IMG/VR virus record: IMGVR_UViG_3300011432_000003
Coordinates: 1 to 56,805 of that record
Length of the DNA stretch: 56,805 nt
Source of the DNA: a virus
Lineage: Duplodnaviria > Caudoviricetes
Strand: one strand, 5' to 3'
The notes beneath the pieces are model-generated. The model was given only the letters and a program-made list of their open reading frames with translations, made no database searches and had not been told where the DNA came from. Position 1 is the stretch's first letter; each line of letters opens with the position of its first letter. The translations under genes were made by a program, and so were the position numbers. Positions 8,791-34,521 of the stretch are shown in pieces.

Positions 8791-8865
8791 GGCCTTGCGC
8801 GATCGCACAAGGCCTTTTAGTTTCCGATCGTACGCTCTCACACTCTCACTCGAGGACTCACGATG
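8791..8865 (+). promoter_or_regulatory. Hairpin-promoter/RBS cassette, copy 1
   Basis: GGCC-TTGCGC-GATC-GCACAA-GGCC, 17-bp spacer, TAGTTT, then CTCTCACACTCTCACTCGAGGACTCACG-ATG. Confidence 0.85.
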
Positions 8866-9225
8866 AAGCGGCTCACGAGCAAGGCCTGCCCGAAGTGCGA
8901 CGGCACGGGTCACGGCGCTTTCGACTCATCCAATCGCGCCGGCGATTGCAAGCGGTGCGACGGTACGGGCCGGATCCCGGATAGCGTGAAGCGCGTCGCG
9001 CACGTCGAGGATCCGCAGATCGGCGACGTCGTGATCGAGCTGCGCGAGAATGGCGTCTTCATCCGCCGGAAGGGCAAGCGGACGGTATACGGGCCGCTTT
9101 CGTTCCTTGGGCTCTTCATGGCCGGCGCGCGCCAGTACGCCGAGCTCCGACGCCTCGAGGCGAAGGGACGCAAGGCCGGCCGGGCAACCGCTCGCCGGAA
9201 GCGCATCCGCCGCGGGGGGATCTGA
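8863..9225 (+). CDS. Basic protein with DnaJ-type CxxCxGxG zinc finger
   Basis: CPKCDGTG and CKRCDGTG; directly after cassette 1. Confidence 0.75.
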   Translation: MKRLTSKACPKCDGTGHGAFDSSNRAGDCKRCDGTGRIPDSVKRVAHVEDPQIGDVVIELRENGVFIRRKGKRTVYGPLSFLGLFMAGARQYAELRRLEAKGRKAGRATARRKRIRRGGI

Positions 9226-9227
9226 CG

Positions 9228-9557
9228 ATGCACCTTCTCTCCGGGCTCCATCCCGTACACGTGACGCCGGCCGGCGCGCCGGTGCACGTCTCCGCCGAGC
9301 GGCTGCTCGAGCTGGCTCGCTCGTGTCACAAGACGGCGCAGGCCTTCCGCCGGCTCGGGCAACCCGTCTCGGCCGCGCTCTTCGATATGCGCCGGGCGAT
9401 CCTGCTCGACGACGCGCGGCAGGCACGGCTCCGGCGGCCGCATGCGGCCCGGTGCGACGAGCGCGCCGGGTACGGCTTCCATGCCTGCGCGAAGGATCGC
9501 GGGCACCGCGGCGATTGCCGGTGCCGCTGCGGCGAGGCCTTCGGCGAGCCATTTTGA
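9228..9557 (+). CDS. Hypothetical protein with C-terminal Cys/His cluster
   Basis: Follows the upstream gene after 2 bp; C...HAC...H...CRCRC. Confidence 0.6.
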   Translation: MHLLSGLHPVHVTPAGAPVHVSAERLLELARSCHKTAQAFRRLGQPVSAALFDMRRAILLDDARQARLRRPHAARCDERAGYGFHACAKDRGHRGDCRCRCGEAFGEPF

Positions 9558-9624
9558 AGCAGGCGACACCTTAGCGAGCTCGCTCAACCTTCCCGGTGAG
9601 AAGCCGCTCCGGCCGCCGACTATC

Positions 9625-9694
9625 GGCCTTGCGCGATCGCGCAAGGCCGTTTAGTTTCCGGTCACACTCTCACACACTCGAGGTACTCACGATG
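9625..9694 (+). promoter_or_regulatory. Hairpin-promoter/RBS cassette, copy 2
   Basis: TTGCGC-17-TAGTTT inside GGCCTTGCGCGATCGCGCAAGGCC; 69/70 identical to copy 3. Confidence 0.88.
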
Positions 9695-10384
9695 CCCGCA
9701 ACGACGACGAAGACGAAGACGACGATCCGCGACCGGCACTACCCGCCGGCAGAGATCCGCGAGAACACGAAGGCGCGCCGCGCGTGGGTCGAGGCGAAGA
9801 TCGTCGAGCTGAAGGCGCAGCCGGACACGGATGCAAAGTCGGTGCAGTCGGGCAGCTATCAGCACGTCGTCGAGTACGCGCTCACGAAGGTTGCGGCCCG
9901 TGTGCAGATCCGCGGGACGTGCCAGTTCTGCGCGAATGAGCAGGCGCTCGAGAACGGCCTGCTCGTCCTGCACGGGTACACGCGGCCCGGCGACGGATAC
10001 ATCGAAGGCCGTTGCGCCGGCATGCACGGGCAGCCGGCCGAGATCTCGATCGACGACGCGAAGCGGTACGTCGGCTCGCTCCGGACGCAGGCGACGCAGG
10101 AAGAGCAGAAGCTCGCCGAGCTCGAGGCCGAGATGATTACGCTCGGCGAGTGGGCATACGACGTCTCCCGCGGCCGCAAGGCGCCGACGGTGAACATCTA
10201 CCGGCTGCGCTCCGCGCTCCGCGGCGGCTTCAAGCGCCGGAGCGAGCTCACGGCCGCCGAGACGCGGGCGATCGAATTCGACCGGATCGAGAACCTGATT
10301 CCGGCGCTCCGCGGGCAGGCGAAGACGATCGAGACGCACGTCTTCCCGAAGCTCGGCGGGAAGCTCCGCGAGGTTCTAATCTGA
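9692..10384 (+). CDS. Hypothetical protein (CxxC...HGY...C motif, coiled coil)
   Basis: Start at the cassette ATG; GTCQFC...LHGYTRP...GRC. Confidence 0.8.
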   Translation: MPATTTKTKTTIRDRHYPPAEIRENTKARRAWVEAKIVELKAQPDTDAKSVQSGSYQHVVEYALTKVAARVQIRGTCQFCANEQALENGLLVLHGYTRPGDGYIEGRCAGMHGQPAEISIDDAKRYVGSLRTQATQEEQKLAELEAEMITLGEWAYDVSRGRKAPTVNIYRLRSALRGGFKRRSELTAAETRAIEFDRIENLIPALRGQAKTIETHVFPKLGGKLREVLI

Positions 10385-10409
10385 CGGCTCCGGATCCCGA
10401 TCCTCTCGA

Positions 10410-10479
10410 GGCCTTGCGCGATCGCGCAAGGCCTTTTAGTTTCCGGTCACACTCTCACACACTCGAGGTACTCACGATG
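10410..10479 (+). promoter_or_regulatory. Hairpin-promoter/RBS cassette, copy 3
   Basis: TTGCGC-17-TAGTTT; leader CACTCTCACACACTCGAGGTACTCACG-ATG. Confidence 0.88.
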
Positions 10480-10785
10480 TACGCCTGCGCGACGCTCCCG
10501 AACGGCTTCCTCGTCGGCTCCCGCTTCACGTCCGCGGCGACGCTCACCGATGCGCAGGACGCGATCCGGAAAGTCCTCGCCGCCGCCTTCCCGCATTGCC
10601 GCATCTTGTCGCCGCGCGATGCGTGGACGTCCGACGTCGTCCTCGTCGAGTGCTTCCGCTCCCGCTCGACGTGGGGCGTGAGTCGCGCCGGCGGCGAGTT
10701 TGAGACGTGGGCCGTCGAGCTGCGGCCGCAAGGCGGCGTGATCCCGGTCCGCACGAGCAGCGACAACACGCTCGGGGGATTCTGA
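10477..10785 (+). CDS. Hypothetical protein
   Basis: Start at the cassette ATG (MYACATLPNG...). Confidence 0.7.
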   Translation: MYACATLPNGFLVGSRFTSAATLTDAQDAIRKVLAAAFPHCRILSPRDAWTSDVVLVECFRSRSTWGVSRAGGEFETWAVELRPQGGVIPVRTSSDNTLGGF

Positions 10786-10787
10786 CG

Positions 10788-11588
10788 ATGACGACGATCA
10801 CCGCAGAGAAGAGATGGACGGAGCGCCTCGAGCGATGGGTCACGCCGCGCGACGTCTTCCGGCCTGACGGCTTCGCCGTCGACGTCCTGCGCGATCGGGA
10901 CGCGAAGGCCTTCGTCACGCGCGAGCACTATTCCGGGACGTATCCGGCCGCGCGCTGCGCGATCGGCCTCTTCCTCGAGAAGTCCCTCGTCGGCGTCGCC
11001 GTCTTCTCGGTGCCGGCGAACGCGCGCGTCCTGCCGCACTACTTCGGCGAGGACGTCAACGCCGCGGAGCTCGGGCGCTTCGTGTGCGCGCCGTGCGTCG
11101 GGTACAATGGGGAATCATGGTTTCTCGCGCGCGCCTTCCGCGCGCTGCGGGAAGTGAAGCAGATCGTCGGCGTCCTCTCGTATGCGGATCCGCTCGAGCG
11201 CACGACGGCCGACGGTGAGATCGCGAAGCGGGCGCATTGGGGGACGATCTATCAGGCGAGTAATGCACGGTACGTCGGCCGCGCGGAGCCGCGGACGCTG
11301 CTCGTCACCGCGGACGGCCGAGTGATCTCGCCGCGCGCCTTGTCGAAGATCCGCAATGATGAACGCGGCGCACGGTACGCGGCCGCGCAGCTCGAGGCCT
11401 TCGGAGCGCCGGCCCGTGCCTTCGGTGAAGAGCCGGCGGCGTGGGTAACGCGCGTCTCGAGCGGCTTCCGTAAGATCCGGCATCCGGGGAATCTCGCGTA
11501 CGTTTTCGGCCTCACGCCGGCGATCCGCACGTCGATTGACGTGCAATGGGGCGCCGGGCAACCCTACCCAAAAGCGAAGGCAGCATGA
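10788..11588 (+). CDS. mom: Mom-family (GNAT-fold) DNA adenine modification protein
   Basis: Motifs FVTREHYS, ELGRF, NGESWFLA, SYADP, HWGTIYQASNARYVG match phage Mu Mom-like proteins. Confidence 0.75.
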   Translation: MTTITAEKRWTERLERWVTPRDVFRPDGFAVDVLRDRDAKAFVTREHYSGTYPAARCAIGLFLEKSLVGVAVFSVPANARVLPHYFGEDVNAAELGRFVCAPCVGYNGESWFLARAFRALREVKQIVGVLSYADPLERTTADGEIAKRAHWGTIYQASNARYVGRAEPRTLLVTADGRVISPRALSKIRNDERGARYAAAQLEAFGAPARAFGEEPAAWVTRVSSGFRKIRHPGNLAYVFGLTPAIRTSIDVQWGAGQPYPKAKAA

Positions 11589-11812
11589 CACAAGACAACG
11601 ACACGGCGCCGCCGTCCCGGCGCGCCGCCGCGCAGCTCGAGCGCGCGGAACGCATGAAGCGGATCGAGCAGGCGTATCTCGCGGCGCAAGTCGACGCGGG
11701 CATTCCGTCCGGGAAGCTCTTTCCGTTCCGGATCCTGCCGCCGCACGAGCGGAAGCTGCTCGAGCGCTTCGCCGTCCGCATCGAGGAATCACTCGAGGGC
11801 GCCGGCGAATGA
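11585..11812 (+). CDS. Hypothetical protein
   Basis: ATGA overlap. Confidence 0.6.
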   Translation: MTQDNDTAPPSRRAAAQLERAERMKRIEQAYLAAQVDAGIPSGKLFPFRILPPHERKLLERFAVRIEESLEGAGE

Positions 11813-12021
11813 TCTTCCTCATCAATGAATGGCCGGCGCATTGTCCGAAGTGCGGCGAAGAGCGCGGCACGCCGCGAGACGTGCACGCGCGCTCGGACTT
11901 TTTCGCCGGCTGCTCGCACTCGTGCAAGTGTGGGGCGAAGTGGCAATTCGTCGAGACGGCGACGCTCGTCGAGACGACGAAGGCGACGGGCGGCGATCTG
12001 CATCAGTACGTCGACCGATGA
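11809..12021 (+). CDS. Small zinc-ribbon protein
   Basis: CPKCG...CKCG; ATGA overlap. Confidence 0.65.
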   Translation: MIFLINEWPAHCPKCGEERGTPRDVHARSDFFAGCSHSCKCGAKWQFVETATLVETTKATGGDLHQYVDR

Positions 12022-12524
12022 GCGGCGGCCGTGCGTGCGCCTGCGCGAAGGATCGGCGCGATTGGGTCGTGCTCACGCGCGAGGGGAATCATTCAAAATT
12101 CAACGGGCGCCGGTTCCAGAGCTCCGCATACTCGGCGATCCGGTGCCTCACGTGTGCGGCCGTCTGGCGCACGCGCGCGGACTACGTCGCCGGGCTCCGG
12201 GATGCCTCGACCGACGAGCGCCGGCTGCCGGTATCCGATCTCTTCCGCGGAGCATGGACGTGTCCCGTGTGCGGCGCCGAGCGTCGCGGCCGCGGGCAGG
12301 CGTACGCGATCGACGTCGGCCGCGGCGTGACGTATCTCGGCCGCGAGGGAATGATCGTCCTCGAGGCCGGCGACTTCGTTTGCTGGTATCACGAGTCGAT
12401 CGAGCGGGAGATCCGCCGGCTCGAGCTCATCGTCGACGCCGGCGACGCCGCGGATCCTGACGAGCTGCAGCGGGAGCTCGCACGGCTGCGGGCAGGCCTT
12501 GCGCAATCGCACAAGGCCGACTAG
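12018..12524 (+). CDS. Zinc-ribbon hypothetical protein
   Basis: CAC, CLTC, CPVC; its stop TAG coincides with the -10 of cassette 4. Confidence 0.65.
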   Translation: MSGGRACACAKDRRDWVVLTREGNHSKFNGRRFQSSAYSAIRCLTCAAVWRTRADYVAGLRDASTDERRLPVSDLFRGAWTCPVCGAERRGRGQAYAIDVGRGVTYLGREGMIVLEAGDFVCWYHESIEREIRRLELIVDAGDAADPDELQRELARLRAGLAQSHKAD

Positions 12525-12561
12525 CTTCCGGGTACACTCTCACACTGAGGCTCACGTTATG
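12495..12561 (+). promoter_or_regulatory. Hairpin-promoter/RBS cassette, copy 4
   Basis: GGCCTTGCGCAATCGCACAAGGCC, 17-bp spacer, TAGCTT, then ACACTCTCACACTGAGGCTCACGTT-ATG. Confidence 0.85.
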
Positions 12562-15298: not shown

Positions 15299-16768
15299 AT
15301 GACACAAGAGACGCACACGACGACGGCCGTCGAGACGCCGCTCGATCCCGCACTCGAGATCTCGAGCGTGCCGAATGAGTCGGCGATGCCGGTCCCGGTG
15401 AAGCCGCCGGCGCCGAACGGCGATGCACTCCCGCCGGAGCTCCCGCCGCACGAAGCGGCCGAGCAGGCGGATCTCAACCGATGGACGCCGGCGCAGATCC
15501 AACTCCTGAAGGACACCGTTTGCCGCGGCGCGACGGATGACGAGCTGCGGCTCTTTCTCTACGTGTGCCAGCGGCGCCGCTTGGATCCGTTCACGAAGCA
15601 GATACACGCGATCAAGCGCCGGGTAAAAGAGGGCTCACGCTGGCGCGACTCGATCACGTTTCAAACCGGGATCGATGCCTTCCGGCTCGTCGCCGATCGG
15701 ACCGGGAAGTATCTCGGGCAAGCGCCGTTTGAGTGGTGCGGTGAGGATGGCGTATGGCGTGACGTGTGGCTTTCGAAGGACGCACCGAAGGCCGCGCGCT
15801 GCACGATCTATCGCGAGGGATTCCGGGAGCCGATCCGGGCCGTCGCGCTCTTCGACGAGTACGTGCAGACGGTCGACGAGTACAAGCGACAAGAGCAGGC
15901 GCCGGGCGAATTCGCCGACGTCAAGACGGGCCGCGAGGTTCCTAACGCGATGTGGACGCAGCGGCCGGCCGGGCAGCTCGCGAAGTGCGCGGAAGCGCTC
16001 GGCTTTCGAATGGCCTTCCCGGAAGAGCTCTCCGGGCTCTACACAAATGACGAGATGGGACAAGCGGATAATCCGTCGAAAGGCGCGCAGCGCGTCGGCG
16101 TCGATAGCGGGCAAGGCGATAGCATGAATGGGCGCGCCGGCGGCGAGACGCCGAGCTGCCCGAAGTGCGGCGGCGAGATGTGGGACAACCGCGAGAAAAA
16201 GCGCAGTCAAAAGGGATGGGCGACGGCGCCGGACTTCCGGTGCAAGAATAAGAACGGCTGCACCGGCGAGATCGCCGACATAGCAAACCCTCAACGGCCG
16301 GCGGAGCAGACAGCGAACGGGCCGAGCTCCGCCGGCTCGGCCGCTCCGCGATCCGACGCGCCGACAAGCGGCAGCGCGAGCAGCTCGAGCTCGGGCCGCG
16401 CGGCGTCGACGCCGGACACGAGGCCGACGTCGGAGAAGTCTCCCGGCTCTTCGACGAATTCCGCGAGCAGCGGCTCCGGATCCTCGAGCGCGACGGATAC
16501 GATCCCGACGTCGACGATCACGCGTGACGCGGTGATCGATTGGGGGCTCGGGAAGTTTTCCGTCGTGCAGGGGAAGCGGATCAAAGATCTCCGATGGGAG
16601 CAGCTCGACTACTTCATCCGCAATCGGCCGAGCGTGCTCCCGGCGGGATGGCTCGAGGCGATCGCGAAAGAGAAGGCGCTGCGCGAAGAGACGGGCGGCG
16701 ATGAGCGCGACGAGGACGACGGCGGCAGCATGCAAGGCGGCGATCCGTACACCGGCGCCGGCGCATGA
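15299..16768 (+). CDS. bet: Bet/RecT-family single-strand annealing recombinase with C-terminal Zn ribbon
   Basis: TDDELRLFLYVCQRRRLDPFTKQIH, TGIDAFRLVADRTGKY, WTQRPAGQLAKCAEALGFRMAFP, GLYTNDEM; alternative start 15140. Confidence 0.9.
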   Translation: MTQETHTTTAVETPLDPALEISSVPNESAMPVPVKPPAPNGDALPPELPPHEAAEQADLNRWTPAQIQLLKDTVCRGATDDELRLFLYVCQRRRLDPFTKQIHAIKRRVKEGSRWRDSITFQTGIDAFRLVADRTGKYLGQAPFEWCGEDGVWRDVWLSKDAPKAARCTIYREGFREPIRAVALFDEYVQTVDEYKRQEQAPGEFADVKTGREVPNAMWTQRPAGQLAKCAEALGFRMAFPEELSGLYTNDEMGQADNPSKGAQRVGVDSGQGDSMNGRAGGETPSCPKCGGEMWDNREKKRSQKGWATAPDFRCKNKNGCTGEIADIANPQRPAEQTANGPSSAGSAAPRSDAPTSGSASSSSSGRAASTPDTRPTSEKSPGSSTNSASSGSGSSSATDTIPTSTITRDAVIDWGLGKFSVVQGKRIKDLRWEQLDYFIRNRPSVLPAGWLEAIAKEKALREETGGDERDEDDGGSMQGGDPYTGAGA

Positions 16769-18690: not shown

Positions 18691-18757
18691 GGCCTTGCGC
18701 AACCGCACAAGGCCTTTAGATTCCGGGTACACTCTCACGCTCGAGGTTCTCACGATG
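18691..18757 (+). promoter_or_regulatory. Hairpin-promoter/RBS cassette, copy 5
   Basis: GGCCTTGCGCAACCGCACAAGGCC, 16-bp spacer, TAGATT, then ACACTCTCACGCTCGAGGTTCTCACG-ATG. Confidence 0.85.
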
Positions 18758-21440: not shown

Positions 21441-21461
21441 GAACCCGCTCACGAGGGGAGA

Positions 21462-21887: not shown

Positions 21888-22066
21888 GCGCCGAAACATT
21901 CGCGCGCGGCGCGTACGCCGTCGCCGCGATCGCCTTCGTGCTCGCGGTCGTCGTCTTCATGCTGCAGTCGCATCTCCGGTATCGCGCGGCCCGGCGCCGG
22001 CACGAAGAGCAGTATCGGCGCGTCCTCGCGTCGATCCGGAGCACGCTCGAGAACCTCGAGCGGTGA
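21884..22066 (+). CDS. Small membrane protein
   Basis: One TM followed by a basic tail; overlaps at both ends. Confidence 0.6.
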   Translation: MSAETFARGAYAVAAIAFVLAVVVFMLQSHLRYRAARRRHEEQYRRVLASIRSTLENLER

Positions 22067-22356
22067 CGACGCTCTGCGCGACGTGTCCGCTCAATCGGGA
22101 TCCGACGCAACCGCTCTCCGGGCGGCAGGCGCAGCTCTTGCGCTTTCTCGGCCAGTATCACCGGCGCTCGGGCATCATGCCGGCGTATTCCGAGATCGCC
22201 GAAGCGCTCGGCGTCCGCTCGCTCGCGAGTGTATCGGAGCTCGTCGGGACGCTCGAGGGGAAGGGATGGATCTCCCGCCGGCATAACGTCGCGCGCTCGA
22301 TCACGCTCACCGCGGCCGCGGTCGAATGGGTCGCACAGTACGGAGACGCGGCATGA
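22063..22356 (+). CDS. LexA N-terminal DNA-binding-domain-only protein
   Basis: LSGRQAQLLRFL...GIMPAYSEIAEALGVRSLASVSELVGTLEGKGWISR...ARSI; no peptidase domain. Confidence 0.85.
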   Translation: MTTLCATCPLNRDPTQPLSGRQAQLLRFLGQYHRRSGIMPAYSEIAEALGVRSLASVSELVGTLEGKGWISRRHNVARSITLTAAAVEWVAQYGDAA

Positions 22357-23706: not shown

Positions 23707-23916
23707 ATGGCTCGCGAGTCTGGCATCGTGAAGTGGTTCAACGATCAAAAAGGGTTCGGCTTTATCACGCGCGACAATGGCGGGAAGGACGTTTTCGTAC
23801 ATCAGACGGCGATCAAAGCCGACGGATTCCGCACCCTCTCGGAAGGCGAGCGCGTGACGTTCGACGTCGAGAACGCGGAGAAGGGACCGGCGGCGAAAGA
23901 CGTCGAGAAGTCATAA
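23707..23916 (+). CDS. cspA: Cold-shock protein (CSD)
   Basis: [15 protein letters not shown] (RNP1), DVFVH (RNP2), KGPAAKDV; GAGGA RBS. Confidence 0.97.
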
Positions 23917-23983
23917 ATCGATCGATCCCGCCGGCCGGGGGGCCGGCGTGGGTCGTCGCTCTCACTCTCACGGACCTATCACG

Positions 23984-24418
23984 ATGACGGCAGCCGGGAC
24001 GCTTTCGATCTCACTCAATCGTCGCGAGGGCGAATGCATCGCGTGCGGCGCCGCCGTTACGGATCCGCGGCAAGGGCTGCCGATGCGCGACGGCGAGATC
24101 GTCGATCTCGAGGATAACGGCGAGTGGGGCGGCTTCCATGCGTGCCGCGATTGTTATAACGCATACATCGTCGCCGGTCCGGCCGGCGTCCGGATTCGCC
24201 TGCAGGCGATCGCCGGTGCCGCGGATCGGTTCGAGGTCGTCGGGCCTGACGGTCAAGTTGAGTGGGACAGTGAGGCCGCATATCGCAACTCGCCAGAGAT
24301 GAGCAGCGCGGAGCGGGCGGCCGTCGCCGTGAAGATCGCGACCGTCGGCGTCGGCGGCATTGGCCGAGACGTCCGCCGCTCGATTGTGATCCGGTCCTCG
24401 CTCCATCTCTCCCGATGA
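23984..24418 (+). CDS. Hypothetical Zn-binding protein
   Basis: CIAC...ACRDC; CTCTCACTCTCAC leader. Confidence 0.65.
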   Translation: MTAAGTLSISLNRREGECIACGAAVTDPRQGLPMRDGEIVDLEDNGEWGGFHACRDCYNAYIVAGPAGVRIRLQAIAGAADRFEVVGPDGQVEWDSEAAYRNSPEMSSAERAAVAVKIATVGVGGIGRDVRRSIVIRSSLHLSR

Positions 24419-25665: not shown

Positions 25666-25666
25666 G

Positions 25667-26380: not shown

Positions 26381-27324
26381 AGTCCGCGCTCGTCATCCTC
26401 GCGTCCGGGATCGGGAATGTCATCCGATGGACGCCGATCGTCCCGATCCTCGTCGAGCGCGGATACATCGTCGACGTGTGGATCGTGGCGCCGGATTATC
26501 CCGAAGTGGCCTCGCTGCTCGAGCCGTCGCCGATGATCCGGCGCGTCATGATCTCGGGACTCCTGACGAAAGCGGAAGCGCCGCCGGACGCGTACGATCT
26601 GGCGATCGTCACGCGATGGGTTCCGCCGTTCATTCTCGAGCAGATCCTCGCCGTCGAGCGGCTCGAGGCGCCGGCCGAGTTTTGGCTGCAGCACGGGGAC
26701 CGGGGCGCCGTCGTGTGGACGGCGACGCAGCTCGGGTATATCAACCCGATTCCGAAGCCATTCGTTCACGCCTCGAGCCGGCGCTTCGGCCTCGAGCCGA
26801 GTACGATCGCGATCCATGCCGGCCGGAAGGCGGGATGGGATCAAAAGCAGTGGCACGGCTTCGGCGAGCTGCTCCGGTATTTCGAGCGCTTCGTCCTCAT
26901 CGGCGCCGGCGAAGATTGGACGGGGCACGAGCTCGGCGACTACGCGCGGCATCTCGCGCGCGGCCGCGACTACGTCGGGCAGCTCACGCTCCGGGATACG
27001 GCGGCGCTGCTCACCGAATGCGTCGGCGTCGTGACGATCGACTCGGGGATTTCGCATATCGCCGCAGCGCTCGGGATTGCGACGTTCCCGATCTACGGGA
27101 TCACGCGCGCGCGGCGCGAGGCGTTCGCCTTGCCGAACGTGTACCCGATCGAGAACCGGGCCGCCTGCGCGCCGAGCTGCGCGACGATCCGGTACAATGC
27201 GCGCACGTGTCCCGGCGGCCTCGCCTGCTTGTCGACGCTCACCGCGGAGACGGTCGCGGCGAAGGTCCGGAGCGTCCTCATGCTCGAGGCGCCGGCGGAC
27301 GCACCGGCGGCGGCTGCGGAATGA
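26377..27324 (+). CDS. Glycosyltransferase family 9 (ADP-heptose transferase-like)
   Basis: GIGNVI..TP, KQW, GQLTLRDTAALL, IDSGISHIAAALG, C-terminal Cys cluster. Confidence 0.85.
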   Translation: MKSALVILASGIGNVIRWTPIVPILVERGYIVDVWIVAPDYPEVASLLEPSPMIRRVMISGLLTKAEAPPDAYDLAIVTRWVPPFILEQILAVERLEAPAEFWLQHGDRGAVVWTATQLGYINPIPKPFVHASSRRFGLEPSTIAIHAGRKAGWDQKQWHGFGELLRYFERFVLIGAGEDWTGHELGDYARHLARGRDYVGQLTLRDTAALLTECVGVVTIDSGISHIAAALGIATFPIYGITRARREAFALPNVYPIENRAACAPSCATIRYNARTCPGGLACLSTLTAETVAAKVRSVLMLEAPADAPAAAAE

Positions 27325-27575
27325 TACGCGTCACCGTGGAGCTCATTAGCGCGATCAGTCCGGACCGGAATCGGGTGCTCGGAATCGCGGAGATCGCGAA
27401 CGAATCCGGCGACGAGCTGCATGCAGACTATAGCGTTCGGTTATCGAAGTGGGCGCCGAAGACGGGGGAGACGTGGAAGCGCGGCGAGGTCCGCGGCTTC
27501 GATAAAGTGCATCGGGGCGCGTGGGATCTCTTGTATCTGGCGCTGCGGGCATGCGTCGGAGATCGGAACCGATGA
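27321..27575 (+). CDS. Conserved-looking phage hypothetical protein
   Basis: MIRVTVEL...LGIAEIAN...DYSV...GAWDLLYLAL; ATGA overlaps. Confidence 0.7.
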   Translation: MIRVTVELISAISPDRNRVLGIAEIANESGDELHADYSVRLSKWAPKTGETWKRGEVRGFDKVHRGAWDLLYLALRACVGDRNR

Positions 27576-29422
27576 CACGGCCGCTCACGATCGCCGTCCG
27601 GCTCACCGGCGGGATGGGGGACGTCCTACTCGCGTCGCCGTTCCTCGAGCAGATGCACGAGATCCTCGAGAGCTGCGAGATCACGGCGTACTATCACTCG
27701 CCGAAGGTCGCGGAGTTTGTCCTCGCCGGCGCGCGCTTCGTGCACGCGATCCGGGACGTCGCGGATCTCAATCGGGCCGCGCTGCAGCGCGCGGATGTGC
27801 TCGTGCATACGGGACACTTTCCGCGCTATGTGCCGCAGAACCGGCGCGCGCTCGCGCTGCTCGGCGGCTCGGCGTTTCGGTTCCTCGTCGAAAGGAATCA
27901 GGCGGCGATCGCCGAGATCGAGGGATTCGTCACGCATCATCCGCGGTTAGACGGCGTATGGGCGCGCATGCTGCAGGGGAACGGGCACGCGATGAATTAC
28001 CTCGACGGGATCGGCCAGCTCTCCGGCTTCCCGATCGACCGGCACACGCGGCCGTTCCTCACCTTGGATCCGGGACACCGCGGCCCGGTATCGATCGCGC
28101 TCGAGCGCCGGCCGTATATCACCGTGCACGACGGTTTCGATAACCGGCAGGCACCGGCGGCCGGGCGCGCGTCAAAATGCTGGCCGCTCGAGCACTGGCA
28201 GGCGCTCGTCGCACTCCTGCGCGCCGCGCATCCCGACTACTTCATCGTACAGCTCGGCGCCGGGAAGAGCCGGCCGATCGCCGGCGTCGACGCGTGCCTG
28301 ATTGACAAGACGACGCTCGCGGAAACGGCATGGATCCTGAAGGACGCCGCGCTGCACGTCGATACGGACTCCGGCCTCGCGCATCTCGCGTACGCGCTGC
28401 ATACGCCGGCCGTCGTGCTCTTCGGGCCGACGCCGGCGCGCTACTTCGGGCACGATCCGAATACAAACGTCGCCGTCGGGCCGTGCTCGGATTGCTGGTG
28501 GAGTACGCCGGATTGGCTCGCAAAGTGTCCGCGCGGCCTCGCGACGCCGGCGTGCATGCAGGCGATCACGCCGGCACTCATCGAGGCCAAGGCGCGCGAC
28601 GTCCTCGCGCAGCGGGCACGCCAGACGCCAAAGTTCCGGGCCGGCGTGCTCCGATGTTACGACGGCATGAACGACGAGGCGCGCGCGATCGCCGACGTGA
28701 TCGCGATCACGTCCGGGCTCGAGCCGGGACCGATCACCGGGCATCTTGTCGACGGCGCGACGGGCGTCTATGTGCACGCGTCGAAGCAATGGGAATACGC
28801 GTACGCCGTGCGGTCGATCGTGGAGTACGCCGGAATCCGGAAGGCACCGGACGGCCTCGAGATTGCGCAATGCGCCGGCCTGAAGATCGCAGACGTCGGC
28901 GGCGGCCGCGGCGCGCTCGCGGCCTTCCTCGCCGCCGCCGGGGCGACGGTCGAGCAATTCGACCGGGATTACCAATGGGGCCGCAACGGGCACACGGAGC
29001 CGGCGTATCAGCGATGGAGCCGCTCCAAGGGATACCGGGCGCGCTTCGGCTCGATCTATAACCTGCCGGCGGCGTCGGAGTCATTCGACGTCGTCCTTTG
29101 CATCTCGGTCCTCGAGCACCTTCCCGACAAGCGCGCGGCGCTCCGCGAGCTCGTGCGCCTGCTCCGGCCCGGCGGGATCTGCGTCCTCACCTTCGATCTC
29201 GCGCTCGAGCCGGAGCGCTTCCGGGATGCCTTGCGCGTCGACGTCGCGGATCCGGACCGGCTCGCGGAATGGCTCGCCGCGATCGGGATCGAGTACGAGC
29301 TGCTCCCGAATGCACTTCCCGCGATCGTCGAGCTGAGTCAATCGCGGATCCAATTCGACGGCGTCGCCGGGATCCCGGACGGGATGACGGTCGCCGGCCT
29401 CACGATCACGCGCGTGCGATGA
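27572..29422 (+). CDS. GT9 glycosyltransferase fused to a class I SAM methyltransferase
   Basis: N-terminal GGMGDVLL, KCWPLEHW, DTDSGLAHLA, VLFGPT; C-terminal WEY, DVGGGRG, FDVVLCISVLEH, LLRPGG. Confidence 0.88.
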   Translation: MTRPLTIAVRLTGGMGDVLLASPFLEQMHEILESCEITAYYHSPKVAEFVLAGARFVHAIRDVADLNRAALQRADVLVHTGHFPRYVPQNRRALALLGGSAFRFLVERNQAAIAEIEGFVTHHPRLDGVWARMLQGNGHAMNYLDGIGQLSGFPIDRHTRPFLTLDPGHRGPVSIALERRPYITVHDGFDNRQAPAAGRASKCWPLEHWQALVALLRAAHPDYFIVQLGAGKSRPIAGVDACLIDKTTLAETAWILKDAALHVDTDSGLAHLAYALHTPAVVLFGPTPARYFGHDPNTNVAVGPCSDCWWSTPDWLAKCPRGLATPACMQAITPALIEAKARDVLAQRARQTPKFRAGVLRCYDGMNDEARAIADVIAITSGLEPGPITGHLVDGATGVYVHASKQWEYAYAVRSIVEYAGIRKAPDGLEIAQCAGLKIADVGGGRGALAAFLAAAGATVEQFDRDYQWGRNGHTEPAYQRWSRSKGYRARFGSIYNLPAASESFDVVLCISVLEHLPDKRAALRELVRLLRPGGICVLTFDLALEPERFRDALRVDVADPDRLAEWLAAIGIEYELLPNALPAIVELSQSRIQFDGVAGIPDGMTVAGLTITRVR

Positions 29423-30666: not shown

Positions 30667-30848
30667 GTCGACGACGAGGTTATTACGATCCGGGCCGCAG
30701 TCCGTACCCGCGGAAGGCGGAGAGCACACGGCCGGCGGCGCCGCCGAAGGACCGGCCGCTCACACGGCAGCAACGGCGGAAGCTCGAGCGCGACGCCGCA
30801 AAGGGAGACGTCGCCGCGGCGCGTCGGCTCGGGATCGTGAAAGAATGA
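30663..30848 (+). CDS. Small basic protein
   Basis: LTRQQRRKLER; overlaps at both ends. Confidence 0.55.
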   Translation: MSRRRGYYDPGRSPYPRKAESTRPAAPPKDRPLTRQQRRKLERDAAKGDVAAARRLGIVKE

Positions 30849-31264
30849 CGCCGATAGAAGTCGTCGCGGCCGTTCGCATCTGGCATCGTCAGGTATGGAT
30901 CTGCCGGCGCCTGCACGACGGAGACAGCTCGCATAACGCGGCGAGTTTTGCCGGCTCGTGGGAGTTTCCCGGCGGCAAGGTTGAGGCTACCGACGCGACG
31001 CTCGGCGCAGCGCTAAAGCGCGAGATGCTCGAGGAATTCGATGCGCGGATCGTCGTCCGCGAGTTACTCGCCTCGATCGACGCGGATCATCTCGGCAAGC
31101 GGTATCGCGTACACTTTTTCCGGGTCGTCTTCGTGCAGACGCCGGCGCTCAAGGTTCACAGTGAAACGCGATGGATGATGCCGGAAGATGCTGCAGCGCT
31201 GCCGCATCTTCCGAGCGGTGTCGAATTTTTACGCCGGCTGCAGGCCGGGGAGATCGTCGTATGA
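30845..31264 (+). CDS. Nudix hydrolase (MutT/NudG-like)
   Basis: WEFPGGKVE...ALKREMLEE Nudix box. Confidence 0.9.
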   Translation: MTPIEVVAAVRIWHRQVWICRRLHDGDSSHNAASFAGSWEFPGGKVEATDATLGAALKREMLEEFDARIVVRELLASIDADHLGKRYRVHFFRVVFVQTPALKVHSETRWMMPEDAAALPHLPSGVEFLRRLQAGEIVV

Positions 31265-32058
31265 CGCCGCTCGTCAGTTACGCGCAGATGACGCACGTCG
31301 CACGGGCCGCCGGCGCGCAGCGCGTGCGCGAGCAGCTCGGCCGGCCGATCGACGTCCATATCGACCGGGAGAGCCGCGGCCCGTGGAGCTCCGCGCGCGC
31401 GGCGTGGGAAGCGACGCCGGGCTCGTGCCGATGGCGCGTACTCCTGCAGGACGACGTCGATCTCGCGCCGGACTTCGCCGACGCGCTCGAGTGGCTGCTC
31501 ATGGAATACGGGAGCCTACTCGCTGGCCGGCCGCTCGCTCTGTATAACGGGCTCGGGGATCAACCGGACGCCGGCGAGCATTGGATCGAGCGCCGGGACG
31601 GCGTGCAGGGGCCGGCAATCGTGCTCGGGCAGCCGGACGTCGCACCTATGCTCGAGTGGTGCGAGCGCTTCGTCCGGGATTCGCCGGCGATGACGTCGAG
31701 CGATATACGGCCGTCCCTCTGGCTCGAGGCGATGGGGCGGACGTCACTCTGCCCGTCGCCGTCGTGGCTCAATCACCGCGGGTACGAGCCGTCGCTCAAC
31801 GGGACGCGCAGCTCGAGATCGCAGCCGCGGACGGCGCCGACGTGGGATCCGCATCGCCGCCTCGCCTCGATCGATTGGACGCTCGGCCTCGCACCGCGGA
31901 TCCGTGAGCTGCGCGGCCGCCGGCTCGGGGCATCGGAGCGCGTGCGCTGGCATCTCTGGCGCACGTGGCAGCGGGAGCCCGATCACGAGCTCTATCGGCT
32001 CGGCCTCGATCCGTGGGAAGGGATGCCGCGGCACCGCGGCGGACTGGCCGGGATATGA
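31261..32058 (+). CDS. GT-A fold glycosyltransferase
   Basis: MTH..R, W..ARAAW, LLQDDV (DxD-like), PSWLNH...S. Confidence 0.65.
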   Translation: MTPLVSYAQMTHVARAAGAQRVREQLGRPIDVHIDRESRGPWSSARAAWEATPGSCRWRVLLQDDVDLAPDFADALEWLLMEYGSLLAGRPLALYNGLGDQPDAGEHWIERRDGVQGPAIVLGQPDVAPMLEWCERFVRDSPAMTSSDIRPSLWLEAMGRTSLCPSPSWLNHRGYEPSLNGTRSSRSQPRTAPTWDPHRRLASIDWTLGLAPRIRELRGRRLGASERVRWHLWRTWQREPDHELYRLGLDPWEGMPRHRGGLAGI

Positions 32059-32060
32059 GA

Positions 32061-32088
32061 AGAGCCCGGCGATTGCTCGCCGGGCTCT
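32061..32088. terminator. Hairpin terminator between convergent transcription units
   Basis: AGAGCCCGGCGA-ttgc-TCGCCGGGCTCT, a perfect 12-bp stem where the + and - gene blocks meet. Confidence 0.75.
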
Positions 32089-32142
32089 CTCGCTCCGCTT
32101 ACTCCGCTCGATCGATCGCACTTGTCCAGACGCGAGGGAAAT

Positions 32143-32469
32143 CTAATGGCCGCGACGCCGGCGAGGATACGCCGCGCGGAAGGCGCGCCATGCCTCGCGA
32201 CGGGCCGCTTCCGTCCACACGAGCGCCGACGCCTTGAATCCGCACGCCTTCGCATCGGCGAGGATCTGCATCTGCCCGGCCAGCAGGCCGCCGACTTGCT
32301 TCCCGTCGGCACCGTGATACGTCACGGACCAATCGCCGATCATGCCGGACGTCGCGGCCATATTGCCCGGATGGAAGTCGATCACGGCCTTAACGGCCGG
32401 CGCCGAGTGGAAGCGCTTCGGATCGACGGGAGCGGATGCCGCGAGGCGGCGCGAGAGCTGCGTCTTCAT
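32143..32469 (-). CDS. Hypothetical protein
   Basis: Preceded by a half cassette CACTCTCACTCTCGAGGATCCTCACG-ATG. Confidence 0.7.
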   Translation of the reverse strand: MKTQLSRRLAASAPVDPKRFHSAPAVKAVIDFHPGNMAATSGMIGDWSVTYHGADGKQVGGLLAGQMQILADAKACGFKASALVWTEAARREAWRAFRAAYPRRRRGH

Positions 32470-32702
32470 CGTGAGGATCCTCGAGAGTGAGAGTGACGAC
32501 GGGGAATGAGGCCGAGATATTCGGCCGCTGCAGTGAGGGACCGGATCCGACGCGGGAATTCCGTCGGATCATTGCGATAGATCGTGCCGGTATCGGTGAT
32601 CTCGACGAAGTCATCGCCGCACGCGTAGATCGTCGAGAACGGCCGGCTCTCGATGGAGAGCCGGGCCGTCTTCGCGAGCTCGTCGAATTGCGCGCGGCGC
32701 AT
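32466..32702 (-). CDS. Hypothetical protein
   Basis: Tightly packed in the - strand block. Confidence 0.65.
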   Translation of the reverse strand: MRRAQFDELAKTARLSIESRPFSTIYACGDDFVEITDTGTIYRNDPTEFPRRIRSLTAAAEYLGLIPRRHSHSRGSSR

Positions 32703-32705
32703 CGG

Positions 32706-33050
32706 TTAGCGCGCCTCGCGAATGAACCGGACGGCCTTCGCCGTCATCGTGACGATCGCGCGCTCGCTCGAGTCGCGGATCCCGGACCAATCGCCGCCGG
32801 CCGTCCCGATCCCGCGGCCGAACCCGTCGGCGAGCGCTTCGAAGTCACAACCGGCGGACCATGCCGCTTGAATCACGTACAGATCGGCACGGGCCGAGAA
32901 CGCGAATCCGTTCCGCATCCCGCGGAATCGGCTCGTCGGCTCGCCGGCTTCGATGCACGCGAGCGCATGCGTGAGGACAACCGTCACGTCACCGGCGACG
33001 TACGGCAGGGAGTCGAGATCGGAGAGGATCGAAGCGGCGGCGGACGTCAT
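32706..33050 (-). CDS. Hypothetical protein
   Basis: Start at the cassette-6 ATG; DWSGIRDSS. Confidence 0.7.
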   Translation of the reverse strand: MTSAAASILSDLDSLPYVAGDVTVVLTHALACIEAGEPTSRFRGMRNGFAFSARADLYVIQAAWSAGCDFEALADGFGRGIGTAGGDWSGIRDSSERAIVTMTAKAVRFIREAR

Positions 33051-33115
33051 CGTGAGTACCTCGAGTGAGAGTGTATGCACATTCTAAACGTCCTTGTGCG
33101 ATTGCACAAGGGGCC
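33048..33115 (-). promoter_or_regulatory. Hairpin-promoter/RBS cassette, copy 6
   Basis: Reverse complement CC-TTGTGC-AATC-GCACAA-GG, 17-bp spacer, TAGAAT, then ACACTCTCACTCGAGGTACTCACG-ATG. Confidence 0.85.
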
Positions 33116-33315
33116 TAGAGGCGCCAATCGATGACGCAGGCGTTTACGGCGTCCGCCGCGGCCGTGCGCTCGCACCACTTCCGCACGATCCGCTCGGCGT
33201 GCGCGCGCGTCGGGGCCGTCACGATCGTACCGTCGGGCAGCATGACGAGCAGCTCGCCGGCCTCGCCGCGCTCGACGACGGCCTTCCCTTGCACGTTCAC
33301 GCGGGGCGCCGTCAT
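33115..33315 (-). CDS. Hypothetical protein
   Basis: MTAPRVNVQG...IDWRL; overlaps the upstream stop. Confidence 0.65.
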   Translation of the reverse strand: MTAPRVNVQGKAVVERGEAGELLVMLPDGTIVTAPTRAHAERIVRKWCERTAAADAVNACVIDWRL

Positions 33316-33536
33316 CGCGACGTATCCGGATCGAAGGCGATCCCGCCGATTTCGAAGCTCACGCGGTACGTCTCGGTCGTGCCGCGGCGCGTCACGCGCG
33401 CGATCCAAAGGCTGCGGGAAGGATCGTAATCGACGCGGACGCTTCGCGCCTGCAGGACACGGCGGCCGGCGCGCTCGATGCGTGAAACGTACGTCTCGCT
33501 CGGCGTCATGCCTTTGCTATACCGTGAGTAACGCAT
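33312..33536 (-). CDS. Hypothetical protein (alternative start 33509)
   Basis: Downstream of cassette 7. Confidence 0.65.
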   Translation of the reverse strand: MRYSRYSKGMTPSETYVSRIERAGRRVLQARSVRVDYDPSRSLWIARVTRRGTTETYRVSFEIGGIAFDPDTSR

Positions 33537-33600
33537 ACCGTAACCTCGAGCGTGAGAGTGTATGCACAAACTAAGAGGCCTTGTGCAATCGCACAAGGCC
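33534..33600 (-). promoter_or_regulatory. Hairpin-promoter/RBS cassette, copy 7
   Basis: Reverse complement GGCCTTGTGCGATTGCACAAGGCC, 17-bp spacer, TAGTTT, then ACACTCTCACGCTCGAGGTTACGGT-ATG. Confidence 0.85.
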
Positions 33601-33636
33601 TCGAGGCAACAAAGATCCGGGAACCTCGCCGGCGTC

Positions 33637-33897
33637 TTACCTCTGCTCGGCGGCGATCATCGCCTGCGCGACGTCGTGCCAATTGCGGACCGGGACGCCG
33701 GCGAAGCCGCGGATACATACCGTGCGCGGCTCGGCGAGGAATGGCACGAGCTCGATCGGCTCGTCAGGGATCACCGATGGCTCGATCGTGGCGACGATCG
33801 AGGGGCCGGATTCCGGCGTGACGATGAGCGCAACGTTTATGTCACCGAAGCGGGCGATCGTGTCCGCGAGCCGAGCCTGCAGTTCCGATGCTAACAT
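33637..33897 (-). CDS. Hypothetical protein
   Basis: MLASELQARLADTIARFGDINV; start at the cassette-8 ATG. Confidence 0.7.
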   Translation of the reverse strand: MLASELQARLADTIARFGDINVALIVTPESGPSIVATIEPSVIPDEPIELVPFLAEPRTVCIRGFAGVPVRNWHDVAQAMIAAEQR

Positions 33898-33961
33898 CGT
33901 GAGTAACCTCGAGTGAGAGTGTGCACACATACTAAGCGGCCTTGCGCAGTCGCACAAGGCC
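33895..33961 (-). promoter_or_regulatory. Hairpin-promoter/RBS cassette, copy 8
   Basis: Reverse complement GGCCTTGTGCGACTGCGCAAGGCC, 17-bp spacer, TAGTAT, then ACACTCTCACTCGAGGTTACTCACG-ATG. Confidence 0.85.
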
Positions 33962-33966
33962 TCGCG

Positions 33967-34212
33967 CTATTTCCAGCGCTCGAGCGGGTACTTCCGCCGA
34001 AGCTGCCGGAAGGCCGCACGCAGCGGCGCGTCGAGCTCGAGCCGATCGTCGAGCGTCATCTTCACGCCGTACGTTTCCTCGTACCAAAGTTGCATCTCGC
34101 CGCGGCCGACACGCGTCGGCGGCAGGATCTCGTCGATCTGCGTCGCCGGCGTGCGCGCTTCGAAGCGGCGCACAAACTCGGCGACGTACGCGGTGATCTG
34201 CTCGGCCGTCAT
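33967..34212 (-). CDS. Hypothetical protein
   Basis: MTAEQITAYVAEF...; ATGA overlap. Confidence 0.65.
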   Translation of the reverse strand: MTAEQITAYVAEFVRRFEARTPATQIDEILPPTRVGRGEMQLWYEETYGVKMTLDDRLELDAPLRAAFRQLRRKYPLERWK

Positions 34213-34454
34213 CGCTCGATCGCTCCGCTGCCGATCGCGCCGACACCGGCCGGCGTGCCGCTCGCCTGCCGCGCTTCCTCGACCCATTGCTCGACCGTGA
34301 AGGCGCCGAGCTGCGCGACGTACACGGCCGTCCGCGGCCAGCGTCCGACGTCGCCGGTAAAATACCAATAGTCCCGGCCGTGTACGATCTCGACACCGAC
34401 GAAGCCGGCACGGGCAAGCGCCGCATTGACGAGAGAGCGAGTGACGCGAGCCAT
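34209..34454 (-). CDS. Hypothetical protein
   Basis: MARVTRSLVNAAL...GRDYWYF...VYV...TVEQW; start at the cassette-9 ATG. Confidence 0.7.
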   Translation of the reverse strand: MARVTRSLVNAALARAGFVGVEIVHGRDYWYFTGDVGRWPRTAVYVAQLGAFTVEQWVEEARQASGTPAGVGAIGSGAIER

Positions 34455-34521
34455 CGTGAGAACCTCGAGCGTGAGAGTGTATGGAGAAGCTAACCGTCCT
34501 TGCGCGATCGCACAAGGGGCC
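34452..34521 (-). promoter_or_regulatory. Hairpin-promoter/RBS cassette, copy 9
   Basis: Reverse complement CC-TTGTGC-GATC-GCGCAA-GG, 17-bp spacer, TAGCTT, then ACACTCTCACGCTCGAGGTTCTCACG-ATG. Confidence 0.85.

Follow-up and report, generated by a model that had tools for sequence, protein, structure and literature searches.

A repeated, putative promoter, hairpin and translation-start cassette in the non-structural half of a siphovirus-like phage genome

What is the role of a DNA element of approximately 70 bp that is repeated nine times in one phage genome and each time ends exactly on a start codon? This situation is found in the IMG/VR virus record IMGVR_UViG_3300011432_000003 (Duplodnaviria; Caudoviricetes), whose complete sequence of 56,805 bp, with approximately 67% GC, was analysed and is called the window in the following. 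We consider it rather probable that a siphovirus-like phage uses the nine elements as composite early expression cassettes. The phage itself is probably lytic, since no integrase or CI-type repressor was found among approximately 60 of its 94 open reading frames (ORFs) scanned with Pfam and/or PHROGs. The ORFs were called with a codon-bias model of our own. The mechanism that we propose has four steps, all predicted from sequence, and the promoter step is the best supported of them.

The full element is present in exactly nine copies in the window, and its parts follow each other in a fixed order: the palindrome GGCC-TTGYGC-N4-GCRCAA-GGCC, which includes a putative -35 box, then a putative -10 box TAGNNT at a distance of 16-17 bp from the latter, 6 nt, the leader sequence ACACTCTCAC, a Shine-Dalgarno (SD) sequence (CTC)GAGG, and the ATG. 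The two boxes are separated by 17 bp in eight of the nine copies and by 16 bp in copy 5, while the distance from the -10 hexamer to ACACTCTCAC is exactly 6 nt in eight copies and 8 nt in copy 1. All nine copies are co-oriented with the downstream ORF and end on its ATG, and GAGG is always located 7-9 nt before this codon. Pattern searches and a sequence-only covariance model made from the nine copies agree on their number. In the window, the model returned exactly nine full-length matches with 63.5-77 bits; the next-best match (25.5 bits) is the palindrome read on the opposite strand, and a leader-only match was found at 32466-32495 (17.2 bits). This confirms a preliminary description of this DNA in the number and the places of the copies, in the spacing of the boxes and in the nine ATGs that open ORFs. 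It had missed two leader-only copies, before the ATGs at 23984 (+) and 32469 (-), as well as a looser one before 23707. Taken separately, the palindrome CCTTGYGC-N4-GCRCAAGG has nine sites in the window with no mismatch and 13 sites with up to three mismatches (mean of 100 shuffles 1.68, largest 6), and ACACTCTCAC has nine exact occurrences and 14 with up to one mismatch (shuffle mean 1.44). The copies are as follows, with their covariance model scores in bits and their predicted hairpin energies.

8791..8865, plus strand: copy 1; stem GGCCTTGCGC-GATC-GCACAAGGCC, 17 bp to TAGTTT, then 8 nt; TCGAGG; ATG at 8863; leader with an 8-nt duplication (ACGCTCTCACACTCTCAC); 63.5 bits; -16.2 kcal/mol; heads g16 (120 aa, zinc-finger-like with CxxCxGxG) and g17.
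9625..9694, plus strand: copy 2; perfect 10-bp stem, flagged as terminator-like; TAGTTT; ATG at 9692; 75.7 bits; -23.3 kcal/mol; heads g18 alone (230 aa; member of a viral family without known function).
10410..10479, plus strand: copy 3; one base different from copy 2 over 70 nt; flagged as terminator-like; ATG at 10477; 77 bits; -23.7 kcal/mol; heads five genes (10477-12524), including one for a Mom-like DNA-modification protein (10788-11588).
12495..12561, plus strand: copy 4; palindrome within the last codons of the upstream ORF, whose stop codon is the TAG of the -10 box TAGCTT; ATG at 12559; 65.7 bits; -17.5 kcal/mol; heads approximately seven genes up to 18690, including those for a Gp157/Gam-like protein, RecT and a 641-aa nuclease-like protein.
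18691..18757, plus strand: copy 5; the sole 16-bp spacer; stem adjoining the TGA stop of the upstream gene; ATG at 18755; 75.1 bits; -18.2 kcal/mol; heads a long rightward gene run including g40.
33048..33113, minus strand: copy 6; 8-bp arms with CCCC...GGAC flanks; TAGAAT; ATG at 33050; 69.1 bits; -14.9 kcal/mol; heads g60 (32706-33050), which is kept in the relative L049.
33534..33600, minus strand: copy 7; 12-bp stem, flagged as terminator-like; TAGTTT; different SD-to-ATG spacer (GAGGTTACGGTATG); ATG at 33536; 69.1 bits; -24.6 kcal/mol; heads a 74-aa ORF and g61.
33895..33961, minus strand: copy 8; TAGTAT; ATG at 33897; 69.6 bits; -20.1 kcal/mol; heads g62 (86 aa).
34452..34521, minus strand: copy 9; TAGCTT; ATG at 34454; 73.6 bits; -17.3 kcal/mol; heads g64 and g63; the first putative leftward promoter, divergent from the terminase genes.

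Invariant columns of the alignment are the TTG of the -35 box, the T, A, G and T of TAGNNT, the leader, and GAGG. Variation is free in the loop, the 6-nt discriminator and the SD-to-ATG spacer, above all when plus-strand copies are compared with minus-strand copies, and the copies are therefore old enough to have drifted at positions without a predicted function. While the loops vary as described before, the claim that the arms always stay paired does not hold: the sixth stem pair is C-G in two copies, T-A in two, C/A in three (copies 1, 4 and 5) and T/G in two (copies 8 and 9), and the outer GG/CC pairs are absent in copies 6 and 9. Outside the window, a search for the full-element pattern in viral contigs gave no match. 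The palindrome alone occurs in 59 viral contigs with a single site each, which is about chance level by our own estimate, and only one of these contigs belongs to a relative. This is L049, an IMG/VR contig of 5,015 bp and the sole relative in which the element region is visible.

In the first step of the mechanism, unmodified host RNA polymerase with the housekeeping sigma factor would recognise TTGYGC and TAGNNT, 16-17 bp apart, as -35 and -10 boxes and start transcription 7 nt downstream of the -10 hexamer, at the A of ACACTCTCAC. We regard this as likely. The conserved leader begins 7 nt past the hexamer, i.e., at the +1 predicted for a sigma70-type polymerase. Furthermore, -10 hexamers generally conserve T1, A2 and T6 while position 3 changes, and the same is observed across the window copies and L049, where T1, A2 and T6 are kept and position 3 drifts. 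L049 carries two copies of the element (44 and 37 bits), whose -10 boxes TACTTT and TACCTT are each located 17 bp from TTGCGC/TTGCGT. It also carries two further putative promoters, with a CCTTGCG...CGCAAG frame, TATATT and TAGTAT, and a different leader; this second type is located at 3258-3170 and 1886-1800 (-), and its leader holds a conserved hairpin, GTCCGGGCAAYGCCGCCCGAC. With invariant box positions, fixed spacing, a leader at the predicted +1 and TANNNT retained in L049, the predicted role as promoter and translation-start unit, already proposed in the preliminary description, appears well supported by the logic of the sequence. Together, the nine units would drive the whole non-structural half of the genome, from 8.8 to 34.5 kb.

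Boxes of this kind can be compared with those of a candidate host. The 72 Gemmatimonadota loci compared have TTGNNN-N16-18-TANNNT upstream of their cold-shock genes 42 times in forward and three times in reverse orientation, versus a mean of 6.6 and a maximum of 13 in shuffles. The hexamers include TTGCGC (four times), TAGCTT (three times), TACCTT (four times), TACTTT (twice) and TAGTTT (once); these are the hexamers of the phage elements, which fits a housekeeping promoter of that phylum. Two lexA promoters of Gemmatimonadales read TTGCTC-17-TAGGTT and TTGCCC-17-TATGTT, and five of six rRNA loci have two or three TTGNNN/TANNNT-type sites upstream, a count made without a control. This pattern is general to bacteria, and the host call is weak. 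The cold-shock protein of the phage is 69-72% identical to cellular ones, four of the five organism-named rows among the 120 cold-shock matches listed are Gemmatimonadota, and the one organism-named homologue of the portal protein (41% identity) comes from a metagenome-assembled genome (MAG) of the Gemmatimonadaceae. Tentatively, the host may be a member of the Gemmatimonadota.

In the second step, the transcript would open with a weakly structured, G-poor leader that serves as a translation-initiation module. The predicted 5' untranslated region (5'UTR) has a length of 24-31 nt and is nearly free of G before the GAGG, and the fold of the leader together with the first 30 nt of the ORF is weaker than the shuffle mean in all nine copies. 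From this we infer an unstructured translation-initiation region. The leader is separable from the promoter, as it also occurs without promoter boxes before g46 and g59 and, in a looser form, before the cold-shock gene (ATG at 23707). The first two sites are:

23917..23986, plus strand: leader-only site L1; an unrelated GC hairpin CCCGCCGGCC-GGGG-GGCCGGCGTGGG (-32.5 kcal/mol vs -26.2 in shuffles), then TCACTCTCAC...CACGATG; without -35 or -10 box; ATG at 23984 (g46).
32467..32496, minus strand: leader-only site L2 (TCACTCTCACTCTCGAGGATCCTCACGATG) before g59, ATG at 32469; without promoter boxes; may sit in the 3' end of a doubtful 78-aa ORF (32466-32702).

The leader-only sites at 23917 and 23649 are both preceded by hairpins of unrelated sequence. 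In L049, the leader is found before the homologue of g59, in the same arrangement as at L2, and before one other gene. Pairing of the leader with 16S rRNA was considered and discarded: 7-mers were all that was found in six rRNA loci, which was taken as chance (no control was run), and in Gemmatimonadales nothing meaningful extends past GAGG/CCUC. The leader pattern has seven single matches in viral contigs, three of them inside the coding sequence of one unrelated phage group. A similar leader, TACACACACTCTCACCCTCGAGGAGGAGAAGCCGATG, stands behind a TAGACT box at 2732-2849 of an unrelated viral contig with 67% GC (L073), no protein of which matches the window; it may represent convergence or a common translation signal of the host.

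The third step concerns the hairpin. It overlaps the -35 box and the spacer, with stems of 8-12 bp and energies between -14.9 and -24.6 kcal/mol. The promoter spacer is taken up by its 3' arm, and the last spacer bases together with the -10 box make up a T-rich tail. Such a GC-rich hairpin would terminate or attenuate transcripts arriving from upstream, and a terminating hairpin would insulate each unit from the preceding one, as demonstrated for the promoter-stem-loop cassettes (PeSLs) of T4-like phages. Three of the nine copies were flagged as terminator-like, copies 2 and 3 being the two best of 18 sites in the first region scanned and copy 7 the best of five in the second. We put the chances of a terminator or attenuator role at about even. 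For reference, the window holds a hairpin of the ordinary kind between convergent genes:

32062..32091, no strand assigned: reference terminator hairpin GAGCCCGGCGA-TTGC-TCGCCGGGCTC between the convergent g58 and g59; -35.1 kcal/mol vs -26.6 in shuffles; the stem is followed by a T-poor tail; likely a bidirectional terminator.

Several observations speak against composite cassettes read in this way. Concerning the promoter, the -35 hexamer fits three of the six positions of TTGACA, and a consensus scanner, which is tuned to E. coli promoters, called none of the nine copies. No RNA run is among the public runs listed as containing window sequence. Concerning the hairpin, covariation over 13 elements (nine of the window and four of L049) amounts to 0.101 versus 0.107 in shuffles, with 280 of 500 shuffles reaching at least the observed value, and four pairs are invariant while one is C/A in three of the 13 elements (copies 1, 4 and 5); the hairpin is neither favoured nor excluded by this result. 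Copies 4, 8 and 9 have poor U-tracts, part of the T-rich tail is itself paired in the best fold of copies 6 and 9, and the palindrome of copy 4 lies inside an ORF. Concerning the host, the call rests on the four of five cold-shock rows and one portal row with 41% identity. A portal relative was found in none of 401 Gemmatimonadota genomes, and CTCGAG is 7-fold denser in the phage than in Gemmatimonadota loci.

The fourth step is speculative and leads to the alternative that survives best. A dimeric repressor on the 20-bp palindrome would shut the nine promoters together, and the palindrome might then mainly be an operator, not a terminator, by which a dimeric phage regulator turns off the nine early promoters in a self-limiting manner. 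The candidate is the following gene product:

22063..22356, plus strand: g40 in the copy-5 operon; 97 aa; LexA-type winged helix only, without cleavage domain.

The protein matches phrog_362 (transcriptional repressor, 1e-10) and carries the LexA DNA-binding domain alone (Pfam LexA_DNA_bind, 3.6e-11). Its family comprises 2062 representative proteins at E <=0.001, many of approximately 100 aa and some with two domains in tandem, and the consensus has a conserved N-terminal CxxC. The palindrome spans approximately -38 to -18, and its centre near -28 is a repressing position. The outer CCTTG and CAAGG are invariant and at constant spacing in all 13 elements from two phages. Even elements Ea and Eb of L049, in which pairing of the inner bases is lost, keep them, which suggests a dimeric protein. 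In addition, the variable pair assorts independently on the two arms, as expected of two half-sites. LexA of Gram-positive bacteria binds 6-bp arms parted by N4, CGAACN4GTTCG, according to PMC3091678. On the other side, nothing ties g40 to the sequence of the palindrome, and binding by g40 is a candidate assignment. Furthermore, the left arm is constrained anyway as the -35 box, and the pairing requirement of a hairpin alone would therefore fix the right arm, too. Altogether we hold the operator role for possible but doubtful.

Two host-related candidates for the palindrome were rejected. It is not a host regulon site, as four of five Gemmatimonadales genomes have no copy and no repeated intergenic site was found. 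The fifth genome (G004, Gemmatimonadales, 8.4 Mb; loci L170-L175) has 11 exact copies of CTTGCGCGTGAGCACAAG, and the six that were inspected have identical flanks within a repeated insertion sequence transposase gene, i.e., a chance match to the palindrome pattern. It is not a host SOS box either, as the upstream regions of two Gemmatimonadales lexA genes show GTTC-N7-GTTC and not TTGCGC-N4-GCGCAA. These lexA promoters, from two MAGs (L160 and L161), hold two GTTC-N7-GTTC-like direct repeats each, e.g., GTTCGGAGTCCGTTCGG, which we take to be of the alphaproteobacterial SOS-box type; we know of no description of such lexA repeats for Gemmatimonadota, although no search aimed at this was made.

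A further alternative regards the cassettes as PeSL-type recombination substrates, where RecT-aided exchange between copies deletes, duplicates, circularises and swaps genes. We judge this to be somewhat unlikely. It is suggested by a comparison of the small leftward cluster with L049, the terminase subunits of which are 84% (large) and 73% (small) identical to those of the window at the amino acid level, with 76% identity at the DNA level.

32143..34454, minus strand: leftward cluster; seven small ORFs and one doubtful ORF, served by copies 6-9 and L2.

Three of the ten ORFs in the L049 cluster have homologues in the window (g63 with 57%, g59 with 58% and g60 with 68% identity), which are three of the seven confident ORFs of the window cluster. 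The order of g59 and g60 is swapped between the two phages, and the gene that comes first behind the terminase-proximal promoter is replaced, together with the promoter type. No similarity was found between the 78-aa ORF at 32466-32702 and L049 B1, or between g64 and L049 A1. The modular mosaicism beside conserved terminase genes is real. In this respect the cassette shuffling proposed in the preliminary description would agree with gene content and order. The homology, however, breaks off where g63 starts, 15-18 nt into the gene of the terminase small subunit and 27 nt into g60; the L049 homologue of the latter is longer by approximately 50 N-terminal residues. All mapped breakpoints are thus ordinary junctions at gene borders or within genes, none inside an element. 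Since elements or leaders fill nearly every intergenic gap of the cluster, a coincidence of breakpoints with elements would prove nothing.

Copies 2 and 3 differ at one of 70 bases, which suggests a recent exchange or duplication. Possible products of such an event were seen in contigs from public sediment and groundwater metagenomes that were aligned to the window. One contig of run X17 joins 9649 to 10435 and thus removes g18 exactly between copies 2 and 3, with 164 nt on the shorter side and 45 nt ambiguous; g18 is covered in the same run. In run X15, one contig joins 10434 back to 9650, as the junction of a circle or of a duplication would do. Both contigs have a depth of approximately 4-5 and run across a 45-nt exact repeat that exceeds the word of the assembler, and they therefore cannot be told from de Bruijn-graph misjoins. 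Other joints were discarded: 9658>18728, with TCCA between the sides, probably arose where an element resembling copy 9 was aligned to copies 2 and 5, and the remaining joints, with sides of only 20-25 nt, are noise. The genome has genes for RecT and for Gam-like and Holliday-junction-resolvase-like proteins, and PeSL mini-circles and deletions of this type were demonstrated in RB49/phi1 (PMC2839356). The comparison is made with one 5-kb relative only. Searches with the portal protein gave short contigs of 1.7-7.3 kb without the element region and nothing in species-representative genomes; the portal homologues P0002 (86% identity), P0003 (73%), P0004 (71%) and P0005 (57%) are located on contigs of 56.6, 51.7, 38 and 58.3 kb, respectively. 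The search with the terminase large subunit gave L049 and two relatives at only 28-29% identity, and the search with g30 gave no relatives. That one 20-bp palindrome is at once -35 box, upstream terminator, g40 operator and RecT crossover point, with the X15 and X17 junctions as real products, we consider quite improbable.

Could the elements be something other than promoters? Few long early transcripts might cover the region, and palindrome and leader might act in RNA processing or stability and in translation, similar to the start-associated sequences (SAS) and extended SAS (ESAS) of Cluster K mycobacteriophages. The leader does stand without promoter boxes at three gene starts. Cluster K ESAS pair an inverted repeat with an RBS (ribosome-binding site) motif just before ATGs in the non-structural half (PMC3203893). 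Moreover, CTCGAG is found up to 20 nt upstream of the start in 21 of 94 ORFs, and this RBS context is therefore general in the phage. What such a reading leaves unexplained is the invariant TTG and TA(G)NNT at a fixed spacing of 16-17 bp, the fixed 6 nt between hexamer and leader, and the TANNNT that L049 retains despite the change at position 3; recognisable promoters would also be missing from both the early region and the leftward cluster if the nine sites were set aside, since the consensus scan of 8-46 kb gave only three other weak sigma70-like sites, which is chance level. We rate it as very improbable. Selfish or neutral palindromic DNA without a regulatory role, of the MITE (miniature inverted-repeat transposable element) or REP (repetitive extragenic palindromic) type, would be near-identical, clustered and palindromic at the core as well, but is hardly credible for units that all point towards the following gene and stop precisely at its start codon, have no terminal inverted repeats or target duplications at their flanks, vary only where no function is predicted and whose palindrome gave in other viral contigs only the single sites mentioned above.

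Taking the nine elements as early expression cassettes, we can ask which genes they serve. It had been described that each heads small genes without known function, which is true of copies 6-9: their cargo comprises seven small ORFs, none of known function, with g64 matching PHROG families of unknown function. The 74-aa ORF after copy 7 (33312-33536) has weaker coding statistics, its GC content at third codon positions (GC3) being 0.77 versus a genome mean of 0.84. In contrast, the plus-strand copies 1-5 head operons of two, one, five, approximately seven and at least 14 genes with recognisable families. Copy 1 is followed by the zinc-finger-like protein, which has weak PHROG matches including a Q-like antiterminator family (2.5e-4), and by one protein without known function. 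For the copy 2 cargo g18, a search of the ESM Atlas returned viral hypothetical proteins only, and the cargo of copy 3 includes the Mom-like protein (Pfam Mom, 7.3e-25). From copy 5 onward we find the winged-helix protein g40, a cold-shock protein, a Holliday-junction-resolvase-like protein, two GT9-like glycosyltransferases, a NUDIX protein and a glucosyltransferase-like protein. An early takeover and anti-defence regulon, as proposed in the preliminary description, would agree with the Mom-like, Gam/Gp157-like, RecT and nuclease-like proteins, and such a role is plausible for parts of the cargo (Mom, Gam). Most of the cargo, however, has no function by match, and what is called a regulon here is just the entire non-structural half of the genome.

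Some neighbouring genes deserve a separate remark. Directly after RecT, the 641-aa protein (16765-18690, +) matches with its N-terminal 235 residues the nuclease end of a terminase-large-subunit PHROG (1.9e-12), and it may be the exonuclease partner of RecT. The cold-shock protein (23707-23916, +; Pfam CSD, 1.4e-29) has counterparts in relatives (82-84% identity), encoded on the long contigs that also carry the portal homologues, and many foreign metagenome contigs stack on the conserved 5' end of its gene (23728-23768). GT9 (heptosyltransferase-like) domains are encoded at 26377-27324 and 27572-29422 (+), the second fused to a class-I methyltransferase, and the NUDIX protein (30845-31264) and the glucosyltransferase-like protein (31261-32058) are encoded close by. 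These proteins may form a module for DNA or cell-envelope modification.

The overall layout of the genome is as follows. Structural genes run rightward from approximately 34.9 kb via the end of the record to approximately 5 kb and include the terminase small and large subunits, portal, a tape-measure-sized gene of 1184 aa and a collagen-like tail fibre. The stretch from 8.8 to 32 kb holds non-structural genes in rightward orientation, and the small leftward cluster occupies 32.1-34.5 kb. An exact 123-bp direct repeat at both ends (1-123 and 56683-56805) is either a true direct terminal repeat or the overlap of a circular assembly. No tRNA was found in the window, and no Rfam family reached its gathering score there. 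The terminase is at most 31% identical to that of any catalogued phage, and no DNA match to any of 50,697 phage records was obtained by megablast with 12 kb and 21 kb of the window. A Cys-rich ORF at 7942-8643 (+; 233 aa, GC3 0.81, no PHROG match), missed by the gene caller, occupies most of the apparent 927-bp gap before copy 1.

Short motifs are unevenly represented in the window. CTCGAG occurs 258 times versus 52.8 expected from a second-order Markov model (z of approximately 31), or 4.5 times per kb; the density is 3.2-4.0 per kb in close relatives (L049, L009 and L010) and 0.65 per kb in approximately 248 kb of Gemmatimonadota loci. Among 234 genic sites, 183 are in frame as CTC-GAG (Leu-Glu). 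One idea is that the excess is a target of phage DNA-modifying enzymes. Four other 6-bp palindromes, CCCGGG, GGGCCC, AAGCTT and TGATCA, are absent from the window, where approximately 12, 10, 9 and 9 sites are expected, and this looks like restriction-site avoidance; CCCGGG and GGGCCC are present at approximately 0.7 per kb in the Gemmatimonadota loci.

How does the cassette relate to known systems? A likeness to an integron without an integrase, as had been proposed, is not supported: no integrase or recombinase family is among the approximately 60 of 94 ORFs scanned, no attC-like site was seen, and the element precedes its genes whereas attC follows its cassette. With respect to the operator, the high-GC Streptomyces phage phiC31 has near-identical early promoters with a repressor-bound conserved inverted repeat (CIR); phiC31 is temperate and its early promoters are not known to resemble sigma70 promoters, and we do not use it as evidence. 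If the speculative fourth step holds, the present phage would offer a simple early shut-off system, with nine identical operators and one candidate repressor.

The SAS of Cluster K share part of the design. According to Pope et al. (2011, PMC3203893), they are 13-bp motifs, GGGATAGGAGCCC, with an RBS core, located 3-8 bp before starts, for which the authors proposed a role in translation and not in transcription. As here, an RBS-bearing conserved motif precedes ATGs by a few bases in the non-structural half only; about half of those sites follow an inverted repeat with a short variable spacer, and sites with and without the repeat coexist. The differences are that, as far as the same text goes, no -35 or -10 boxes are present there and the ESAS repeats are imperfect with 17-bp arms, whereas the repeat described here holds the -35 box and is followed by the -10 box at promoter spacing. 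The leader is ACACTCTCAC...(CTC)GAGG and not GGGATAGGAGCCC, and the element is thus outside the SAS.

The closest resemblance is found with the PeSLs, an analogy that had been drawn before and is apt, as the architecture lies within published PeSL subclasses. According to Arbiol et al. (2010, PMC2839356) and Comeau et al. (2014, PMC4122927), PeSLs combine sigma70-like boxes at N17 with a stem-loop that may overlap the -35 box, lie between the boxes or overlap the -10 box; they end with an SD sequence and ATG, are located among ORFans and recombine with each other, and promoter and terminator activities were demonstrated by lacZ fusions (PMC2839356). The present element is likewise a small repeated intergenic cassette with a sigma70-like N17 promoter and a stable stem-loop that ends with the SD sequence and the ATG of the next gene, and the position of the stem over the -35 box and spacer is that of a published subclass. 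It is concentrated where small genes of unknown function abound, and neighbouring copies flank genes that differ between relatives. The lineage is unrelated, namely a siphovirus-like phage of 57 kb with 67% GC, RecT and the 1184-aa tape-measure-sized gene, in which no T4 core genes were seen. Unlike the variable G-tract/C-tract stems of PeSLs in five positions, the architecture is fixed around a conserved 20-bp palindrome; an AT-rich upstream region is missing, and the whole 5'UTR is conserved and exists as a leader-only module, too. Promoter, terminator and mini-circle activities are demonstrated for PeSLs, while here they are putative.

At the sequence level, the element fits the functional class of the PeSLs feature by feature, as an analogue of those of the T4-like phages and not as a member by descent. 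Composite promoter-terminator-RBS cassettes, so far detailed only in T4-like myoviruses, would thereby be extended to an unrelated, uncultivated, high-GC siphovirus-like phage, which suggests insulated, self-contained units around small accessory genes as a recurrent solution in phage genomes. If the guess at the host is true, a compact promoter/5'UTR/RBS consensus becomes available for bacteria and phages that essentially lack genetic tools. If exchange at the cassettes is true, PeSL-type modular shuffling would gain support as a general mechanism.

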